This document shows, one piece after another, positions 18,579 through 41,076 of a stretch of 43,639 nucleotides of DNA. Made by a program: the position numbers and the translations under genes. Source of the DNA: a plasmid; the sequence record CP102852.1, one strand, 5' to 3'. The notes under the pieces are model-generated. The model saw only the letters and a program-made list of their open reading frames with translations, had not been told where the DNA came from and ran no database searches. Each line of letters opens with the position of its first letter. Positions within the stretch are counted from its first letter, which is position 1.

Positions 18579-18704
18579 AGTACGCCTCCTTATTTACAAT
18601 CCAAGCATATCATAGCATGGTGTGATATGCAATGCTTGTTTTTTGTTGTTTTGACATCGTTTGTATGTTATAATGGCGCTAAATAAAGAAAGGCGGGGAT
18701 AAAC

Positions 18705-18992
18705 ATGGCAACGAGTGCAACAACTATTCGTCTTGATAATGAGCTTAAAGAAAAATTGACAAAAGAATTAAGTGTTACCGGTTTAAGTATTAATGCTTAC
18801 TTTAACATGGCGGCAAGACAGTTAATACTCCAAAAGAAGATTCCGTTTGAAGTTCTGACTGAAACAGACGAACCGACAGAGGAAACTAGACGTGCCTTAG
18901 TGGCGGCAGAGGCTAAAGAGTTGGGGATTATTCCAGATGATGTCCCAGAATTTGATAATACACAAGATCTAAAGGATTTTTTGGATAACTAA
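18705..18992 (+). CDS. dinJ: RelB/DinJ-family antitoxin
   Basis: TIRLDNELKEKLTKELSVTGLSINAYFNMAARQLILQKKIPFEV is a DinJ-like RHH. The gene is followed 1 nt later by a yafQ-like gene. A promoter TTGTTT-17-TATAAT lies at 18641-18675. Confidence 0.8.
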   Translation: MATSATTIRLDNELKEKLTKELSVTGLSINAYFNMAARQLILQKKIPFEVLTETDEPTEETRRALVAAEAKELGIIPDDVPEFDNTQDLKDFLDN

Positions 18993-18993
18993 T

Positions 18994-19302
18994 ATGTATA
19001 AACTTAAACCTGAGCCACAATTCAAAAAAGATTATCGCCAACTTAAACGGGTACACCCTGAGCTAATCAATGATTTAATGCAAGCCTTAGAACAGCTTCA
19101 AATAAATGGTATCGTTAATCAGGAATATCAACCACATGTGCTAAAAAATCGGGGCGGTAATTATAATGGACACTATGAGTTTCATTTATTAGACGGGAAA
19201 GTGGATATTCTGGTCATTTATATGCCCCATAAGACTAATCCAGTGATCCGTTTAGTTCGAATCGGTGGGCACGATGAATTGTTTCATGGTAGTTTAAATT
19301 GA
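18994..19302 (+). CDS. yafQ: YafQ/RelE-family mRNA interferase toxin
   Basis: 102 aa. The motifs FKKDYRQLKR...YQPHVLKNRGGNYNGHYEFHL..G..DILVIY.......VIRLVRIGGHDELF match the YafQ pattern (KKD.K...KR, Y.DH.L.G.W.G.RE.HI, LLIY, L.RTGSHS.LF). Confidence 0.8.
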   Translation: MYKLKPEPQFKKDYRQLKRVHPELINDLMQALEQLQINGIVNQEYQPHVLKNRGGNYNGHYEFHLLDGKVDILVIYMPHKTNPVIRLVRIGGHDELFHGSLN

Positions 19303-19504
19303 ATATCAAAAAAACTAGCAAATCTCCCAGGTTCAGGGATTATCTTGCTAGTTTCTATCGCTTCTTGTGATAATGACCATGGAATAATTTCTTATGAGAA
19401 CCAATATTAGCAGCAACGAGTACTAAATCTTGATTGCTAACTTTATAATGCTGCTTTATAAGTTGGAGTTGGGACCAAGGTCGATAAAATTTTGAAAACT
19501 AATA

Positions 19505-20437
19505 GTGAAGATAAGGGTTATGACGCAGCCGGTAAAATGGTCCAAAATACCTTTGGAAAGCGAGCGGGTGCATGATATGTTTAAACTTACGTATGACCAA
19601 GTAAGACAATTTATAAAAAAATCGGTACTATATGATATGCGATCATATGTTGAATCTGGGCTAGGAGCAAGGATTATCAGCCTATTAGTAGCCACTTTCT
19701 TCATGATCCCTTTAGTTATGATAGTTGGAATTGGTACTACTATATCATTGAATAATTTATTTGGGATTAACATTCCGTTATTATCAAAGATTTTTGTACC
19801 TATATTTATTATTATAGGGTCTTTATCAGAATTAGGTTTTCTAATATCCGTGTTTATTCCAAGAAAGAATATTGCTGAATTTGGTCTTAGAAGTGATATC
19901 ATCTGGTCTCCGCTTATATTTGGAATGATATTTCTTGTTGTACCATTAGGTGTTGGTTCATTGATATATAGTTGTGGTTATACTGTGTTTTTGATACAAA
20001 CAATCGTAATATTGCTATATTTAGTTTTTAAGATTAGTACGTTAGGAAATAAGCGTGAAACCAAAAAAACGGCTTATAGAAGGTTTATAAGCTGGTTTAA
20101 CCTAGGTCATACAATGATTATCTTAATAGCCATGGATGCTGCACTTATCATAATTAATCTATTTACAAATAAGGTACCACTTGGATTATCTTTAATCAGT
20201 ATGATCTATAGTATCTTTATGCCTTTTATGATTTTATTCAATTTTTATATGTTTGGTAAGATTTATAAGGAAATTTACGTAGTTAAGTATGCTCGTCAAT
20301 TTCAATATGATTGGAAAATTCCCGATAAAGAATGGTGGTTTACGGCCAAAAGGGCAGCGAAACATCCACGGGTTTACCCGCCAGTAGAGGAGGAAACAAA
20401 GGAACCGACACCAAAAGAGGAAAATAAGCATGGATGA
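19505..20437 (+). CDS. hypothetical integral membrane protein (about 6 TM)
   Basis: 310 aa with six hydrophobic segments. There is no RBS before either the GTG at 19505 or the ATG at 19520. The paralog at 41077-41913 differs by an in-frame TAA. Confidence 0.55.
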   Translation: MKIRVMTQPVKWSKIPLESERVHDMFKLTYDQVRQFIKKSVLYDMRSYVESGLGARIISLLVATFFMIPLVMIVGIGTTISLNNLFGINIPLLSKIFVPIFIIIGSLSELGFLISVFIPRKNIAEFGLRSDIIWSPLIFGMIFLVVPLGVGSLIYSCGYTVFLIQTIVILLYLVFKISTLGNKRETKKTAYRRFISWFNLGHTMIILIAMDAALIIINLFTNKVPLGLSLISMIYSIFMPFMILFNFYMFGKIYKEIYVVKYARQFQYDWKIPDKEWWFTAKRAAKHPRVYPPVEEETKEPTPKEENKHG

Positions 20438-20672
20438 TAACGGATCTAATTTTTCGTATAAAACCTATTTATGGGGAATTATCGGATGTATAATCTTTGC
20501 TTTGATTTACACACCACTAGTTTGGCTACCAACCATAAGAGTTCGGTCCCAAACTGGTGAAGGACTTAATAGCACTGGCTTTTGGATCATTAATTGTATT
20601 GGTGTCGCGCCCTTTATTGCCATTTACGGGCTCATAAAAGTAGTAATTAAGAAATGGTATAAAGAGAAATGA
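20430..20672 (+). CDS. hypothetical small two-TM membrane protein
   Basis: 80 aa. Its start overlaps the stop of the upstream gene (ATGGATGA). The paralog at 40731-40979 is only about 70% identical at the protein level. Confidence 0.5.
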   Translation: MDDNGSNFSYKTYLWGIIGCIIFALIYTPLVWLPTIRVRSQTGEGLNSTGFWIINCIGVAPFIAIYGLIKVVIKKWYKEK

Positions 20673-21016
20673 GGTAAGTATATGGATTCAAAAACACAAA
20701 TCATTGAACAATACTAGAAGGCTCTTTACAAAGTTCTACTTTTCGACTTTCGATTAACTTACACAAATCGTCTTCCAATAAATAATTTAGAAGATCATTT
20801 CCTATTCTTTCTCCAAAGTGGAAATTTCGCTCCGAGAAATCTAAGCAACAGGGTACAGTGGTTTGATTTACTTTACAAAACTTGCTGAATATATTTTTCC
20901 CTTTTTCAGCAAAGGAATAGTTAACTTTATCAGAAGTGAGGATTAGATATTTAGCCTAGTTAAATATGGTTGAATCTGTACGCCAGATAACGTACGATAT
21001 TACTGAGGTGATGAGA

Positions 21017-21301
21017 ATGGCAAGAATTGAAGCTCGAATTGACGGAACTATTAAAAGTAAAGCCAAAGACGTATTAGCTAACCATGGTCTAACAATTTCT
21101 GATTTTATGCGCATGACATTAACAACAGTTGCTCATGATGGTTTACCTAAATATTATTCAATCCCTAATCGGCAGTTAAAAAATTCGATTCAAGAAGTTA
21201 TTGATGATCTATCTGGAAAAGAAAAGCTACCCGGAGCCCGTAACCTTAAAGAATTAGATCAATTGCTTAGCTCCGATGACGCATTGGAGTCTTCAAAATA
21301 A
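21017..21301 (+). CDS. dinJ: RelB/DinJ-family antitoxin (second copy)
   Basis: MARIEARIDGTIKSKAKDVLANHGLTISDFMRMTLTTVAHDGLP. GAGGTG lies 6 nt upstream of the ATG at 21017. Confidence 0.7.
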   Translation: MARIEARIDGTIKSKAKDVLANHGLTISDFMRMTLTTVAHDGLPKYYSIPNRQLKNSIQEVIDDLSGKEKLPGARNLKELDQLLSSDDALESSK

Positions 21302-21512
21302 ATGGCGAGAGTAATTAAATATACCAAAGCTTTTAAAAAAACAGTTTAAAAAGCGGCGCCAAGACCCCAAGTGGCGTTCAATATTTAAAAGTTCACTACC
21401 TCAAGAGCTTGATGATCAAAAGCGGAGTCCTTGGAAATATATTATTCAGTGCTTAATTGAAGATAAAACCATTCCAGATTATTTTTATCCGCATACTTTA
21501 GAAGGTGTTACA
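21302..21512 (+). pseudogene. yafQ: yafQ-like toxin gene, frameshifted and disrupted by insertion
   Basis: The gene starts MARVIKYTKAFKKTV*. An A7 run here (A6 in copy B) introduces a stop. Homology to YafQ continues to ...DYFYPHALEG and then breaks at the junction with the GC-rich cassette. Confidence 0.6.
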
Positions 21513-22139
21513 ATGGAAAAGCAAGAAACGACAAGAAAGAAAAAAAGGTTTGATATGAAAAGGTCTTTCAGGCGGATTTCCGCTGTCATAGCAACGATGG
21601 CTTTCACGACAGGTCTGGCCGCCTGCGGTTCCTCCCAGTCGACTGCCCCATCGGCGAACAAAGCCACTTCCTCCGTCACTGCCCCCCAGGGCTGGAAGAA
21701 GTTCACGTCCAAGGATCTGGGCTATTCCGTCTATTTCCCGGGCGTTCCGGAGAAGGACACCTATAAGGATCCCACCGGCGCTTATGCCCGCTATTCGACG
21801 GTCAATGACAAGGATCACATCAACTACGCTGTGTCCGTCACCAAATTCACTCGGAAGCAAGTCGAGGACTCCAAGGGGTTCAATGACGCGCAGAAACGTA
21901 AGGTCTTGACCAATGTCGCTCGTCTTCTGCAGATTGACAAGTATTCCTTCACCACCGTGGACGGGCATATGGCCATTTCCTACACCGGTCACGATAGCGA
22001 GGACCCCTCGGTGATCATGCGTCGAGAGGTCGTTTACTCGTCCGCTGGCATCTATGGCCTCGAATCCTTTGGAACTTCCAGCTCGGAATACAAGCAGTTC
22101 GTCGATACCTTCCGGCTTTCCGAAGATACGCAAGAATGA
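21513..22139 (+). CDS. lipoprotein of unknown function on a GC-rich foreign cassette
   Basis: The likely start is the ATG at 21555 (MKRSFRRISAVIATMAFTTGLAAC), preceded by AAAGG. It has a signal peptide with an L-A-A-C lipobox. The base composition is markedly GC-rich compared with the flanks. Copy B is near-identical. Confidence 0.6.
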   Translation: MEKQETTRKKKRFDMKRSFRRISAVIATMAFTTGLAACGSSQSTAPSANKATSSVTAPQGWKKFTSKDLGYSVYFPGVPEKDTYKDPTGAYARYSTVNDKDHINYAVSVTKFTRKQVEDSKGFNDAQKRKVLTNVARLLQIDKYSFTTVDGHMAISYTGHDSEDPSVIMRREVVYSSAGIYGLESFGTSSSEYKQFVDTFRLSEDTQE

Positions 22140-22152
22140 AAGGAGGGCTTCC

Positions 22153-22235
22153 ATGATTTGCCACTGGCTCTACCTACTCCCAGGGGACGCCCACCCCGGA
22201 TTGGATGGCTCCCGTCATGGGAGTCGTGATCGGTC
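22153..22235 (+). pseudogene. small membrane protein gene of the GC-rich cassette, frameshifted and truncated in copy A
   Basis: AAGGAGGG lies before the ATG. Copy A reads ATGATTTGCC against ATGATTTTCGCC in copy B. Homology to copy B ends at 22235. Confidence 0.4.
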
Positions 22236-22407
22236 GGGAGATCAATTAATTTAAAGTATGTTGTTACTAGGGGTTGCCAAAAATCTGTGGTTGGGTTGAA
22301 TCCGTCATAATCAATGATAATTTTGGTGAATTCAATTACATCTGTCAGGTTATGTTTCATTAAATCAAAATCACTTGTCCTATCCATATCGCCAGAGTTT
22401 ACAGTTA

Positions 22408-23118
22408 TATTGTGTACTACGGTTATAGTATGGTCAAGTTTACTACTGGCGATATGACTAGTCTTGGTATTATAAGGTTAGTTATGTTCAGTAATGATTA
22501 TCAAAAGAAGGAGATGATTTCTTATGATTGAGAAAGAAAAAGTTTTAAGCGATGCACCAAAGGTTCTAAATTCTGATAACAATCCTTGGGAAGTTGCTGT
22601 TGAAGGAGATTCGATTATTGGTACATGGAAATGGATGGATGCCCGGTTTTTCACTGAGGGTGGAATCTCCGATGAGGACAAAGATTTTACTTTTACAGTC
22701 ACTTTGAAAGATAACGGGAAATGGAAGGAAATTGATAGCACTTCTAGTAAGACATCAAGTATTAGGATGCATAACGGTAAACTATCTTTCAGTAAAGACA
22801 TCTCCTTTTCTAAGGGAAAGACTTATCAGAAAAGTATTTCTTTTGGTATTGGACAGGACAAGAAGAGCGGTAAAGTTGGAATTGTTGAATCTAAGTTAGA
22901 TACTTCAATCATTAAAAAGTCGATTCGAGATTATTTGAAACAATGTGGCTGGAAGAAAGCTGGACTATTTGGATAGGAAATTATATGGTTCACGTGATGT
23001 AATACTGTTAGCAACAGGACTAAAGTTACTATTGCATAATATCAAAAGGCCCGTTACCTCGTGGGGAAGGTAGCGGGCTTTTTGAGAACAGGCAAAAGAA
23101 AAGCCATGCTAATCAATA
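22408..23118. repeat. 710-bp direct repeat, copy 2
   Basis: See the entry for 9690-10402. The 19-bp inverted repeat present in copy 1 is degenerate here. Confidence 0.85.
22524..22976 (+). CDS. hypothetical 150-aa protein (paralog of 9807-10259)
   Basis: Near-identical ORF with the same RBS. Confidence 0.6.
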   Translation: MIEKEKVLSDAPKVLNSDNNPWEVAVEGDSIIGTWKWMDARFFTEGGISDEDKDFTFTVTLKDNGKWKEIDSTSSKTSSIRMHNGKLSFSKDISFSKGKTYQKSISFGIGQDKKSGKVGIVESKLDTSIIKKSIRDYLKQCGWKKAGLFG

Positions 23119-23119
23119 C

Positions 23120-23183
23120 GTACAATACCCCTTAGGGTTGACACTTTAAATAATAAAAGTGTGAATCCTAAGGGGTATTGTAC
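23120..23183. repeat. 64-bp near-perfect palindrome (28-bp arms, 8-nt loop)
   Basis: GTACAATACCCCTTAGGGTTGACACTTT aaataata AAAGTGTGAATCCTAAGGGGTATTGTAC, with 26 of 28 arm positions complementary. It abuts the end of repeat copy 2. Confidence 0.7.
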
Positions 23184-23503
23184 GACGATAATCATTCTAG
23201 AATTACATTTTGATGGTCATAATGGCGATCATTTATTGGTTTTAATATCGAACTTTTATCATTAAATTTATAGTGTATGTGGAAAACAAGTGTGTGCTAA
23301 AATTAAACCTAATTATAAAAAATATAGTCCCCTTCAAATTTTATTTGAAAATATTAATGGGAGCTAAAACTGACCCACAATCTGGTTAATATGGTGGTCG
23401 GTAAAAAAGTTAAGTTAGTTTAACTAGAAAGTTAATAGGTGCATGATATGTTTATTTTGCTGCTCATAAAAAAACGGTTTTTAATTTACCTGACATATAA
23501 GTC

Positions 23504-38935: not shown

Positions 38936-39062
38936 TTGACGCTCCTCCCTTCATAATTGTTAACTCAACTCTATTTTAGCATTTCTCGGCCACTAGTAAT
39001 TGCCCAGTTGCTTTAAATCATGTTAAGGTTAGTTGCTTTTTCAAGCGTTCATAGCGGTGTTC

Positions 39063-39314
39063 CTAATTGTAGGTGGTCTCGATCATTTCTAAAGGAGAGT
39101 GGCTTCGGTCACAGAATAAAATCCCAATGTGATTGAGAATGCAATATTCAATCACTCGCTCCGATAGATAACACTTTCTATTATCAAACACCAATGTACC
39201 AATATCATCAAAGGTCAGACATTTCTTTTCCTTTGTCTTGATATTTGAAAATTTTAGTCCTTCTTTAGTGACACCAACAAAACATTCATTCTCCACATAA
39301 ACTATATTCTTCAC
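39063..39314 (-). pseudogene. orphan Cas1-like N-terminal fragment (83 codons)
   Basis: The pattern VYVENECF...K..L.F.......K..LTFDDIGTLVFDNRK.YLSERVIEYCILNHIGILFCDRSHSP mirrors the N-terminal beta-sandwich of type II Cas1 (for example ...IPLSDISII......ITL..LSAL...NIALVVCDNEHLP). It is truncated and no array or other cas genes accompany it. Confidence 0.35.
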
Positions 39315-39547
39315 CCTTTACCCCTCCCGAAGTAAGGACCTGCCGATAAATCAACATCCTACTATTTCATTTGGTGTTAATTTCTTTCTCTCGAATATAA
39401 CCTATGCGTCAATTATAAAGTCTGGTCTACTGCAACGAGCTTTCTTGGCCCCTAAATCTAAAGAGAGCGTGTATTTAAATCCAAGGATTTCGATACACGC
39501 TCTCGCTTTTTACTACGTCTCCTTCTAACAGAGATTAGAAATAAAAA

Positions 39548-39590
39548 CAAAAATCCACCCGGCGCGACGAAGATGGCGGGTGGAAGGGGA
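39548..39590 (-). terminator. rho-independent terminator at the end of the GC-rich cassette (copy B)
   Basis: On the minus strand, CCACCCGCC ...loop... GCCGGGTGG followed by ATTTTTGTTTTTATTT. Confidence 0.45.
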
Positions 39591-39604
39591 AGGCCGGATT
39601 GGGC

Positions 39605-39879
39605 CTATCCCAGGGAAAGCAAGGCCTTGTAAAGGTCGTTGACCTTCGTGGGCATGTAGTCGTTCATCATCATGATTTGGTGGGAGTCCACGACTTCATC
39701 GGTGTACAGGCTTCGCAGGCCCACCATACCCTGGAGGGTGTTGGCCAGGATTTGATGCCGAAGATGGCGGCGACGATCCCGGCGATGATGGCCAGACCGA
39801 TCACGACCCCCATGACGGGAGCCATCCAATCCGGGGCGGGCGTCCCCTGGGAGTAGGTAGAGCCAGTGGCGAAAATCAT
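39605..39879 (-). pseudogene. small membrane protein gene of the GC-rich cassette, full length in copy B but with an internal frameshift
   Basis: AAGGAGGG precedes the ATG. MIFATGSTYSQGTPAPDWMAPVMGVVIGLAIIAGIVAAIFGIK then shifts frame to ...ILANTLQGMVGLRSLYTDEVVDSHQIMMMNDYMPTKVNDLYKALLSLG. The shift occurs at an AAA run (GGCATCAAATCC). Confidence 0.45.
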
Positions 39880-39892
39880 GGAGGCCCTCCTT

Positions 39893-40519
39893 TCATTCTT
39901 GCGTATCTTCGGAAAGCCGGAAGGTATCGACGAACTGCTTGTATTCCGAGCTGGAAGTTCCAAAGGATTCGAGGCCATAGAGGCCAGCGGACGAGTAAAC
40001 GACCTCTCGACGCATGATCACCGAGGAGTCCTCACTATCGCGACCGGTGTAGGAAATGGCCATATGCCCGTCCACGGTGGTGAAGGAATACTTGTCAATC
40101 TGCAGAAGACGAGCGACATTGGTCAAGACCTTACGTTTCTGCGCGTCATTGAACCCCTTGGAGTCCTCGACTTGCTTCCGAGTGAATTTGGTGACGGACA
40201 CAGCGTAGTTGATGTGATCCTTGTCATTGACCGTCGAATAGCGGGCATAAGCGCCGGTGGGATCCTTATAGGTGTCCTTCTCCGGAACGCCCGGGAAATA
40301 GACGGAATAGCCCAGATCCTTGGACGTGAACTTCTTCCAGCCCTGGGGGGCAGTGACGGAGGAAGTGGCTTTGTTCGCCGATGGGGCAGTCGACTGGGAG
40401 GAACCGCAGGCGGCCAGACCTGTCGTGAAAGCCATCGTTGCTATGACAGCGGAAATCCGCCTGAAAGACCTTTTCATATCAAACCTTTTTTTCTTTCTTG
40501 TCGTTTCTTGTTTTTCCAT
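39893..40519 (-). CDS. lipoprotein (copy B), in frame with the upstream yafQ fragment
   Basis: Same L-A-A-C lipobox protein as in copy A, with a few substitutions. GC-rich composition. Confidence 0.6.
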   Translation of the reverse strand: MEKQETTRKKKRFDMKRSFRRISAVIATMAFTTGLAACGSSQSTAPSANKATSSVTAPQGWKKFTSKDLGYSVYFPGVPEKDTYKDPTGAYARYSTVNDKDHINYAVSVTKFTRKQVEDSKGFNDAQKRKVLTNVARLLQIDKYSFTTVDGHMAISYTGRDSEDSSVIMRREVVYSSAGLYGLESFGTSSSEYKQFVDTFRLSEDTQE

Positions 40520-40729
40520 TGTAACACCTTCTAAAGCATGCGGATAAAAATAATCTGGAATGGTTTTATCTTCAATTAAACACTGAATAATATATTTCCA
40601 AGGACTCCGCTTTTGATCATCAAACTCTTGAGGTAGTGAACTTTTAAATATTGAACGCCACTTGGGGTCTTGGCGCCGCTTTTTGAACTGTTTTTTAAAA
40701 GTTTTGGTATATTTAATTACTTTTGCCAT
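40520..40729 (-). pseudogene. yafQ: yafQ-like toxin gene, N-terminal 70 codons, disrupted by the cassette (copy B, no frameshift)
   Basis: MAKVIKYTKTFKKQFKKRRQDPKW...DYFYPHALEGV is fused in frame to the lipoprotein ORF. It lacks the C-terminal catalytic half. Confidence 0.55.
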
Positions 40730-40730
40730 C

Positions 40731-40979
40731 TTACTTACTTCTTTTCTCTTTGCGCCATTTTTTAAACATTGCCTTAATTAATCCGTAAACTGCGATGAGA
40801 GGCATTACGCCAATACAATTGACAATCCAAAAGAGTGTGCTATTTCCAGCTCCCGTTTGTAGGCGGTTCTTGATAATTGGTAACCAAACAAGGGGTATAT
40901 AAATCAACTCGAAAACTATAAAGCCGACAATTCCCCATAAATAGGCTTTATACGAGAAATTAGATTCGTCATCATCCAT
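40731..40979 (-). CDS. hypothetical small two-TM membrane protein (diverged paralog)
   Basis: 82 aa. Its start overlaps the stop of the upstream gene. Confidence 0.5.
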   Translation of the reverse strand: MDDDESNFSYKAYLWGIVGFIVFELIYIPLVWLPIIKNRLQTGAGNSTLFWIVNCIGVMPLIAVYGLIKAMFKKWRKEKRSK

Positions 40980-41076
40980 GCTTATTTCCCTCCTTTGGCG
41001 TTGGTTCCTTTGTTCCTTCCTCTACTGGTGGGTAAACCCGCGGATGTTTCGCCGCTGTTTCAGCTGTAAACCACCA

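Follow-up and report, generated by a model that had tools for sequence, protein, structure and literature searches.

Plasmid record CP102852.1, a Lactobacillus gasseri plasmid, carries, in a stretch of 43,639 nt that was analysed whole (the window), two truncated copies of the toxin gene yafQ, each running on into DNA of far higher guanine and cytosine (GC) content (the cassette): copy A at 21302-22235 on the + strand and its inverted counterpart, copy B, at about 40729-39540 on the - strand. Our results are best explained, and we hold this with fairly high confidence, by a recombination scar in which the dinJ-yafQ stability module of a Lactobacillaceae plasmid was joined, in codon 68 of yafQ, to at least 2.2 kb of the chromosome of Parascardovia denticolens, an oral bifidobacterium, and not by a mobile cassette. 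On comparison of the sequences, the GC-rich DNA is judged to be a real, recent and cross-phylum horizontal transfer from that chromosome. The transfer is indicated by near-identity and collinearity with P. denticolens, by atypical GC content at third codon positions (GC3) and by a syntenic vertical relative in Scardovia wiggsiae.

The features of the two copies are the following, with L019 standing for a metagenome contig and L021 for the locus of P. denticolens DSM 10105.

21017-21301 (+): dinJ antitoxin gene, intact, 94 aa (Pfam RelB, E 2e-10; NCBIfam RelB_DinJ), copy A only
21302-21505 (+): yafQ 5' fragment of copy A, nt 1-203 of 378, codons 1-68 (Pfam, blastn)
21497-21505 (+): TTTAGAAGG, final 9 nt of yafQ homology and candidate microhomology, which also heads the cassette-side sequence shared with plasmid plca36
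21506-21534 (+): low-GC filler of 29 nt, TGTTACAATGGAAAAGCAAGAAACGACAA, containing TGTTACAAT and unmatched to P. denticolens
21535-22235 (+): P. denticolens-derived DNA of copy A (blastn to L021, mosaic analysis, alignment)
22236-23180 (+): plasmid-type low-GC DNA that stands in copy A where the foreign segment would have continued, with an open reading frame (ORF) of 150 aa at 22524-22976 and a strong hairpin
23181-23242 (+): yafQ 3' remnant, 62 bp, nt 252-313, codons 84-105 (95% identity to yafQ of plasmid pCV38, blastn)
40527-40729 (-): yafQ 5' fragment of copy B, codons 1-68 (ORF list, blastn), without dinJ upstream
39539-40497 (-): P. denticolens-derived GC-rich DNA of copy B, collinear with L019 216-1628 and L021 9981-11393
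~39584-39539 (-): the donor's own terminator, an 8-bp GC stem with a T-run
39504-39463 (-): hairpin of 12+5 bp
39022-39538 (-): low-GC continuation of the transferred segment, a hairpin and a cas1 5' fragment (alignment to P. denticolens)

Truncation of yafQ in both copies

When an intact dinJ-yafQ pair was compared with the window by blastn, homology stopped at 21505 in copy A and at 40527 in copy B, which is nt 203 and codon 68 of yafQ in both. This agrees with a first-pass annotation of the same DNA, which had seen YafQ homology end at ...DYFYPHALEG at one codon in the two copies. The annotation had taken YafQ to be about 95 codons long, and this figure has to be corrected, since the intact homologue has 125 aa. 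Intact relatives found by tblastn with the fragment lie on L. plantarum plasmids at 88-90% identity (89.7% over the fragment for pCV38, the dinJ of which is 91% identical in DNA to that of copy A). Beyond the break point of the window, the pCV38 protein reads ...DYFYPHALEG LKDLKKQIKRQLNDANMTIIILELHFDGHNGDRLLVYVPTGKTVFLAGIGTHSELFG, and the uninterrupted yafQ allele of pEB01-1 has GCTTTAGAAGGCCTAAAGG across the break and continues ...TTTAGAAGGCCTAAAGG.

The 68-69-aa fragment matches Pfam YafQ_toxin (PF15738) at positions 3-50 of 88 (E 4e-5), with a score of 24.2 bits that lies below the cut-off of 30; the intact pCV38 protein covers positions 4-88 of 88 with 36 bits. Missing from the window are positions 51-88, as the first-pass annotation had proposed in describing the C-terminal half as lost, and we take these positions to be those that would hold the equivalents of His63, Asp67, His87 and Phe91 of Escherichia coli YafQ. 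Because this C-terminal part of the domain is gone, YafQ is predicted to be dead in both copies, the truncated family member being a pseudogene, and the dinJ of copy A would be an orphan antitoxin since its toxin partner is dead. The region LHFDGH...GTHSELFG of intact YafQ, which would carry the C-terminal catalytic His/Asp/His residues for ribosome-dependent mRNA cleavage, is absent after codon 68 in both copies, and of the codons on that side just 21 persist, as the detached remnant at 23181-23242.

The likeness to DinJ-YafQ modules (PF15738 with PF04221) is clearest in copy A, where dinJ is intact, precedes yafQ and stops 1 nt before the yafQ start, and it extends to the N-terminal 68 residues, which fit the YafQ profile, and to the intact L. 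plantarum plasmid homologues, which are annotated as YafQ family toxins. The window differs from such modules not only in the missing profile positions. An extra A in the A7 run 21335-21341 of copy A causes a +1 frameshift with a stop at codon 16, and in copy B, where the dinJ-yafQ pairing does not exist, an 82-aa membrane-protein gene abuts the yafQ fragment (yafQ') instead. The intact 125-aa subfamily also differs from E. coli YafQ (92 aa) in carrying an insert that the E. coli protein lacks, and a PDB sequence search with the intact homologue gave no match.

The 3' remnant lends weak support to the earlier description of yafQ as split. A 3' piece does exist in copy A, but it lies 1.68 kb downstream behind plasmid-type DNA and is absent from copy B as well as from plca36, pLU4 and pMWLp-12A, three plasmids that otherwise share the arrangement of copy A. 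Within the gap of 1,675 bp between the 5' fragment and the remnant, the first ~730 bp are filler and P. denticolens DNA, and the rest is plasmid-type DNA with the 150-aa ORF, which recurs at 9685-10402. The remnant is compatible with insertion plus deletion, but these plasmids hold several yafQ alleles, and a later reshuffling of them may account for it just as well.

Source of the GC-rich DNA

The window has a mean GC content of 38%, and its 600-bp profile, far from being flat, peaks at both cassettes: these reach 0.54-0.57 against a mean of 0.375 (sd 0.041) elsewhere, and all 12 of the 12 richest windows fall within them. The rise in GC above the plasmid background that had been noted after yafQ is therefore borne out, with foreign DNA of 55-57% GC in a 38% GC plasmid. 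Codon composition agrees, the lipoprotein gene in the cassette having a GC content of 0.545 and a GC3 of 0.69 against a GC3 of 0.27-0.49 in the flanking dinJ, yafQ' and 150-aa ORF.

Protein searches with this lipoprotein returned almost exclusively near-identical plasmid copies, plus a 68%-identical protein (P0011) and a 51%-identical one (P0017). The 935-bp contig encoding P0011 has GC-rich DNA upstream of the gene, and an exact 30-mer from that DNA matched two long metagenome contigs; by exact-sequence look-up, the flanking proteins on one of these (L019) are P. denticolens proteins at NCBI. In P. denticolens DSM 10105 (L021, CM001148.1) the gene order is esxA, essC, yukD-like, YwqH-like, WXG100, a 458-aa gene, a 155-aa gene, lipoprotein paralogue 1, paralogue 2, a 234-aa membrane-protein gene, a truncated YwqH-like ORF (YwqH'), cas1, cas2 and, further on, a gene for an FHA protein. 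The window corresponds to this locus as follows.

Window 21567-22117 and 40465-39915: L021 9273-9823, paralogue 1
Window 40497-39752: L021 9981-10738, paralogue-2 frame and start of the membrane-protein gene
Window 39757-39539: L021 11154-11393, end of the membrane-protein gene and terminator
Window 39538-39022: L021 11685-12207, hairpin and cas1 5' part, 97%

Save for two deletions, the segment is collinear with L021 9981-12207. The donor is therefore of the kind that had been expected from the GC content, an actinobacterial or other high-GC one, and can be named as P. denticolens, with 98.6-99% identity over the mature domain of the lipoprotein.

P0017 and its genomic match belong to Scardovia wiggsiae (Bifidobacteriaceae), where a tandem pair of lipoprotein paralogues and a membrane protein of 229 aa are encoded within a type VII secretion system (T7SS) locus that also has EssC-like ATPase, YukD-like, YwqH-like, WXG100 and FHA proteins. 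In this species the FHA gene directly follows the membrane-protein gene, and the low-GC island that P. denticolens has at this place (see below) is absent. S. wiggsiae was considered as the donor and dropped, since 51% identity marks a relative only and P. denticolens matches at 98.6-99%. The donated stretch comes from the edge of the corresponding P. denticolens locus. This donor locus resembles T7SSb-like loci in its EssC-type FtsK/SpoIIIE ATPase, WXG100 proteins, YukD-like protein, YwqH-like helpers and FHA protein, and in that the lipoprotein pair and the membrane protein occupy its variable downstream part. The window differs in having no secretion machinery: two accessory genes were carried over, one of them broken. 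In the donor, the lipoprotein gene lies three genes downstream of the 458-aa ORF, which itself follows the YwqH-like and WXG100 genes. The 458-aa protein has no recognisable toxin domain in Pfam or NCBIfam, a PDB sequence search with it yielded nothing useful, and the 155-aa protein belongs to no Pfam or NCBIfam family.

These results also bear on the idea that nothing was inserted at all, the YafQ subfamily ending here by nature or being fused to a lipoprotein, with GC a matter of local composition. In its favour, yafQ' and the lipoprotein of copy B lie in one 278-aa frame that gene callers predict. We give this idea next to no chance. Homologues at 88-90% identity run on for 57 codons, to 125 aa, completing the Pfam profile; the frameshift in copy A means that the two copies do not share the fusion frame; a fused product would have its signal peptide in the interior; and the GC-rich DNA is 98.6-99% identical to the P. 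denticolens chromosome. The 278-aa fusion ORF of copy B is an artefact, and the 261-322-aa proteins that gene callers report here are fusions or read-throughs of dead yafQ, the lipoprotein ORF and downstream DNA.

A chimeric lipoprotein gene

The lipoprotein gene occupies 21555-22139 in copy A, preceded by its ribosome-binding region and followed by the first 27 codons of the membrane-protein gene (22153-22235); in copy B it occupies 40477-39893, followed by a membrane-protein-gene remnant at 39879-39605 and the donor's terminator. The ORF is intact in both copies, with an AAAGG ribosome-binding site 7 nt before the ATG. The earlier call of a lipobox lipoprotein holds: the signal peptide MKRSFRRISAVIATMAFTTGLAAC has a positive n-region, MKRSFRR, followed by ISAVIATMAFTTG and an L-A-A-C24 lipobox that fits the pattern [LVI][ASTVI][GAS]C, and neither lipobox nor cysteine varies when the protein is aligned with its homologues from P. 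denticolens and Scardovia.

Column-by-column comparison gave a mosaic. The ribosome-binding region and the signal-peptide part (the first ~55 nt) agree with paralogue 2; the mature-domain tract follows paralogue 1, from which it differs at 5-7 of 504 nt (98.6-99% identity) against about 1 in 3 for paralogue 2; and over the last 7 codons (LSEDTQE) the gene returns to paralogue 2. Each switch lies in sequence common to the two paralogues, GGCCGCCTGCGGTTCCTCCCA and GGAATACAAGCAGTTCGTCGATACCTTCC. As judged from this alignment, parts of two tandem P. denticolens paralogues have been combined, in frame, into one chimeric gene. On a metagenome contig whose junctions are of plasmid type (ERZ27319300 k141_220643, positions 1-1888), two cassettes lie in tandem. 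The first has a pure, frameshifted paralogue-2 allele, followed by the 150-aa gene and a partial yafQ' joined at GGAAAT(T)ATAT; the second, a few hundred bases downstream, has the chimeric allele. The presence of two alleles, pure and chimeric, implies at least two exchanges with P. denticolens sequence.

A profile search of 1.84 billion representative proteins found 51 clusters at E<=1e-3, and the family is therefore rare. Against Pfam PsbP_2 (PF18933) the window protein scores 23.1 bits and P. denticolens paralogue 1 26.3 bits, both below the cut-off of 27, and the alignment of the former spans positions 5-176 of 184, end to end. An AlphaFold model (predicted local distance difference test, pLDDT, 73; predicted template modelling score, pTM, 0.76) has an antiparallel sheet flanked by helices, a PsbP/Mog1-like fold. 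PsbP comes first among the Foldseek matches (E 2.8e-5 to 1e-4; target-normalised TM-score 0.53-0.57), with Mycobacterium tuberculosis Apa, the type VI secretion system (T6SS) immunity lipoprotein Tsi3 and the chaperone EagT6 among the others, at TM-scores of 0.35-0.57 overall and of about 0.4-0.57 (target-normalised) for PsbP, Apa and Tsi3, the closest matches. The likeness to PsbP/Mog1-fold proteins (PsbP, Apa, Tsi3) therefore lies in the predicted fold, in the NCBI name of one allele, 'PsbP-related protein', and in Tsi3 being a lipoprotein too. It is limited by the Pfam score under the cut-off, by 9-18% identity to any solved structure, by the smallness of the family and by a context with neither photosystem nor T6SS. 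A PDB sequence search with the lipoprotein profile gave nothing useful.

Membrane-protein gene, terminator and cas1 fragment

The second ORF of the cassette is preceded by the ribosome-binding site AAGGAGGG. What had been described as a small single-helix protein is the remnant of a gene that in P. denticolens is complete and encodes 231-234 aa with one N-terminal membrane helix. The proposal that it is frameshifted differently in each copy was correct. In copy A, 27 codons are left, with a 2-bp deletion (ATGATTT--GCC) and the cut at 22235; this earlier assigned truncation point is exact against the donor sequence, since ...GATCGGTC/ is followed by GGGAG in copy A and by TGGCC in the donor (here and below a slash marks the break). 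In copy B, 416 bp were deleted between CATCAA repeats, joined at 39757-39752, and the frame changes because the two hexamers lie in different codon phases. A third form, nearly full length and frameshifted, is found on L. plantarum plasmid SRCM101518 unnamed3. Among the cluster members examined, all Lactobacillaceae entries are truncated (143 or 176 aa) and most P. denticolens entries have 231-234 aa; the gene is broken in all plasmids seen. Pfam and NCBIfam place the protein in no family.

The terminator and the hairpin with which copy B had been said to end are both present, but foreign DNA runs on past them to 39022. The terminator folds at a free energy (dG) of -13.7 kcal/mol, no better than shuffles (z -0.8), and was missed by the consensus terminator scan because its loop exceeds 8 nt; the hairpin folds at -28 kcal/mol (z -4.7). 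The low-GC continuation at 39022-39538 is 98.3% identical, without gaps, to P. denticolens L019 1920-2436 and 97% identical to the DSM 10105 locus. It holds 98 codons' worth of cas1, with homology to 39022, and an 83-aa ORF (39314-39063, -) that stops where intact Cas1 has Gln84. The same 83-aa Cas1 sequence is widespread in Lactobacillaceae, with 995 contigs in the look-up, and no cas2 or CRISPR array adjoining this orphan N-terminal fragment was seen in the window.

In P. denticolens, cas1-cas2 has 37-44% GC within a locus of 50-65% GC, its Cas1 clusters at >=90% with that of Limosilactobacillus fermentum, and L. fermentum DR9 has the same hairpin-cas1 stretch, preceded by csm genes. For these reasons, it was most likely from Lactobacillaceae that P. 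denticolens received its cas1 DNA. P. denticolens and L. fermentum DR9 can be told apart at 15 sites, and at 12 of these the window has the P. denticolens base.

A Lactobacillus-plasmid-like island beside the donor genes

The low-GC DNA of the donor locus belongs to a 7.6-kb island (L021 ~11677-19309) of 30-44% GC with flanks of 50-65%, lying between the truncated YwqH-like gene and a 387-aa gene. It is composed of L. fermentum-type cas1-cas2 and 5.5 kb of plasmid-like DNA, and the latter (L021 13808-19309) is 96.6% identical to L. gasseri plasmid pEB01-2 (13967-20343). The stretch carries ArsR/DUF5937, MFS, Tag, 282-aa and 80-aa genes, with ThiF annotated in a related L. gastricus plasmid, and in pEB01-2 it leads directly into dinJ, yafQ' and the lipoprotein gene. 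Pieces of the island also match the window upstream of copy A, at 19443-19584, 20293-20607 and 20731-20953. Since this island adjoins the donor genes, plasmid and chromosome would have recombined at this very locus, and the island itself reads as evidence of Lactobacillaceae-to-Bifidobacteriaceae transfer. At its right end in P. denticolens a short match, GGTGTCG, lies just beyond the break; short-homology rearrangement is evidently common in these plasmids.

The genes that precede yafQ' in the window encode an 80-82-aa two-helix membrane protein (40979-40731; 20430-20672) and a 278-aa polytopic membrane protein (41913-41077). In both copies they form arms of 96% identity, the 3' part of which equals the right end of the P. 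denticolens island.

Direction of transfer

The joint between the GC-rich and low-GC parts of the segment tells which arrangement came first. P. denticolens reads ...terminator-CATTT/GAGATAAAATG...(YwqH')...CAGATATGAA/CTAATCTCC..., L. fermentum has ...GATATGAACTAATTTCC... in the corresponding region, and the plasmid reads ...CATTT/CTAATCTC.... The plasmid joint is without the 283-bp YwqH' piece of P. denticolens and without the 8 nt GATATGAA common to P. denticolens and L. fermentum, and because both are missing it represents a nested deletion of the chromosomal arrangement. Together, this nested deletion, the intact chromosomal genes, the Scardovia synteny and the atypical composition show that the P. 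denticolens chromosome was the source of the plasmid segment and did not receive it from a plasmid.

The left joint

In copy A, P. denticolens homology starts at 21535, 20 nt upstream of the lipoprotein ATG. The 29-38 nt at the joint aligned to the upstream region of P. denticolens no better than shuffles did (score 4.0, shuffle mean 3.8). Within the filler, TGTTACAAT is an extended -10-like motif read by eye from the sequence; the consensus promoter scan did not report it. In plca36 the joint reads GTGAT/TTTAGAAGGTGTTACAATGG, and the cassette there follows a different, intact dinJ-yafQ pair and its terminator, after which the cassette-free relatives of plca36 carry unrelated DNA. The sequence that plca36-type plasmids share with the window begins at the same TTTAGAAGG, which could either be native to the cassette, having served as microhomology at the joint, or be left over from yafQ. 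The 101-nt sequence spanning the junction was found at full length in 25 complete PLSDB plasmids, which come from five genera of Lactobacillaceae. Because of this spread, the junction, earlier noted as identical in the two copies, must be older by far than this plasmid.

An 8-mer at the yafQ joint, TTAGAAGG (21498-21505 / 40534-40527), recurs in copy B at 39528-39521, where the low-GC DNA on the right of the GC-rich block has run for 10 nt, a match with a chance probability of roughly 0.05-0.1. Both occurrences are native where they stand, the one at the joint to yafQ and the other to the DNA that precedes cas1 in L. fermentum and P. denticolens, and the pair is therefore not a duplication made by insertion.

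Such a pair, together with an identical left junction in many plasmids and a second left context in plca36, is what might suggest a discrete mobile element (an insertion sequence, a transposon or an integron-type cassette) that targets yafQ, and the first-pass annotation had indeed spoken of a cassette and pointed to target-site duplications or insertion-sequence-like ends as worth seeking. At all four candidate boundaries we found short chance-level matches only, with no long inverted or direct terminal repeats and no true duplication. The segment has no transposase or integrase, its best terminal inverted match is 7-9 nt, its right ends differ between plasmids, and the donor genes are ordinary members of a conserved T7SS locus. 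A mobile element of this kind is therefore very improbable, and the notion of a discrete cassette has to be given up.

Proposed route and history of the two copies

For the recombination scar that we prefer, the following course may be proposed. Lactobacillaceae DNA would first have integrated into P. denticolens. A related plasmid would then have recombined with that chromosome, with one crossover anchored in the shared low-GC DNA and, at the other end, an illegitimate joint in yafQ at the TTTAGAAGG match, with 29 nt of filler. Comparison of the sequences shows that a YwqH-like fragment of 291 bp was lost later, that the mature domain of the lipoprotein was converted to the sequence of the neighbouring paralogue and that two independent lesions destroyed the membrane-protein gene. 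The junction spread through plasmids of five genera, and two variant-bearing lineages most likely fused to give two inverted copies. Homology-facilitated illegitimate recombination and the F-prime-like pick-up of chromosomal genes beside integrated plasmid DNA are processes of this kind. The likeness is that one side lies in DNA common to chromosome and plasmid (cas1, island), that on the other side unrelated sequences were joined, possibly through a 9-bp microhomology, and that the captured genes directly adjoin integrated foreign DNA; the differences are the 29-nt filler and the lack of an intermediate. Campbell-type integration of a cassette-bearing plasmid into P. denticolens was considered and rejected, as it predicts YwqH' beyond a second cassette copy, and this is not seen.

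Several points weigh against this account. The exact route is one that we infer, no source was found for the 29-nt filler at the left joint, and blastn found no PLSDB plasmid that retains the YwqH' fragment and no intermediate. In plca36-type plasmids the cassette stands after a different, intact yafQ, and either of the two contexts may be the older. The diagnostic sites in cas1 rest on one L. fermentum strain, and the chimeric lipoprotein requires at least one further exchange with paralogue 1, in a plasmid or a P. denticolens setting.

The flanks of copies A and B are 96% identical and their cassettes 99%; a repeat finder gave inverted arms at 21332-22159 / 39873-40700 (99%) and additional upstream arms at 96%. 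Each copy has a structure shared with other plasmids. The right junction of copy A, with the cut at 22235 followed by the 150-aa ORF, is common to plca36 and pMWLp-12A, and donor DNA ends slightly earlier in pLU4, which loses it from 22146, and in pEB01-2. The form of copy B, with the 416-bp deletion and the cas1 fragment (cas1'), is common to L. gasseri, L. plantarum, L. salivarius, L. fermentum and L. paracasei plasmids, in which cas1' ends progressively shorter and the right ends of the foreign DNA vary. Because the copies differ in structure and either variant is also found on other plasmids, they were most likely brought together by the fusion of two plasmid lineages and not by local duplication. 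Of the earlier view that the insertion predates a duplication, the first half stands, in that the junction is older than the plasmid, and the duplication gives way to lineage fusion. Window 39300-41000 is 99.6% identical both to L. gasseri pHL70_1 (NZ_CP072658.1) and to a second L. gasseri plasmid, and related stretches occur on 42 PLSDB plasmids from six Lactobacillaceae genera, many of them from the human mouth, gut or vagina.

Next to copy A, the module of the 150-aa ORF with its upstream region and terminator occurs twice in direct orientation (9685-10402 and 22402-23118, 96%), the former copy being unconnected to a cassette; the protein matched no family. Immediately before the yafQ 3' remnant lies a near-perfect hairpin of 21+7 bp (23119-23184; dG -46 kcal/mol, z -11), and this element of ~65 nt is also found on L. 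parabuchneri, L. reuteri, L. plantarum and L. pentosus plasmids.

Function of the captured lipoprotein

With its own start, the lipoprotein gene may be expressed. Plasmid copies differ by 1-7 changes per pair, the ratio of non-synonymous to synonymous polymorphism (pN/pS) being ~0.3 to >1, and several frameshifted or deleted alleles circulate. Purifying selection was not detectable on so few changes, with ratios near neutral. Since non-synonymous changes are as common as synonymous ones and broken alleles exist, the gene is best treated as a recent passenger; against this status it must be said that it rests on few substitutions, so that the selection test has little power.

The alternative is that the lipoprotein was kept as useful, as an orphan surface-anchored protection or immunity factor against a T7SS toxin of P. 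denticolens or its relatives, expressed from the promoter-like motif at the junction. We consider it unlikely, though several observations fit it. In the T7SS loci of P. denticolens and S. wiggsiae, YwqH-like, WXG100-like and 453-458-aa genes are closely followed by the two tandem, diverged paralogues, the modelled PsbP/Mog1-like fold has Tsi3 and EagT6 among its matches, the ORF has remained unbroken in both copies and in most cluster members by far, next to a gene that is always broken, and it is preceded by its own AAAGG site and the TGTTACAAT motif. Against this, the pN/pS values of roughly 0.3 to >1 come from 1-7 changes per pair, damaged alleles are in circulation, intactness is expected by chance at ~1% divergence, and adjacency to the integration site of the island accounts for the capture without selection; moreover, the 458-aa neighbour has no recognisable toxin domain and the TM-scores of the fold are just 0.35-0.57. 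That the captured T7SS-locus lipoprotein serves as an orphan shield against a P. denticolens toxin, acquired via a two-way DNA shuttle in caries biofilms, is accordingly a doubtful proposition; if true, it would amount to the inter-phylum theft of an attacker's antidote by plasmids of oral and gut lactobacilli.

Implications and other features of the window

The recombination scar is mechanistically ordinary and involves no new mechanism and no new kind of genetic element. Its ingredients are familiar: a decayed type II toxin, an orphan antitoxin, illegitimate and homology-anchored gene capture, and mosaic lactobacillal plasmids. What is specific here is that the donor can be named, that the cross-phylum transfer is recent (~1% divergence) and that it left reciprocal footprints at one locus, including cas1. 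A gene labelled 'hypothetical' or 'PsbP-related' on dozens of Lactobacillaceae plasmids now has a precise source, ~1% from the DSM 10105 chromosome, and exchange between Bifidobacteriaceae and Lactobacillaceae would have run both ways at this locus, a Lactobacillaceae cas1 piece having entered Parascardovia and returned on a plasmid with Parascardovia genes. No paper describing this exchange was found in the literature, and the P. denticolens genome announcement mentions a different CRISPR locus only.

Elsewhere in the window, a 270-nt tandem repeat at 3166-5103 (4.3 good copies at 94%, plus degenerate ones; GC 44-47%) is probably part of a gene for a repeat-domain surface protein. An Rfam scan of the whole window gave no match within 21302-22235. 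It found three matches to RatA, a type I antitoxin RNA, on the - strand (8853-8942, 9058-9150 and 10885-10975; 85, 50.5 and 52 bits) and one to rli28 at 8601-8787 (+). These coincide with a 60-nt repeat family and are probably type I toxin-antitoxin loci.

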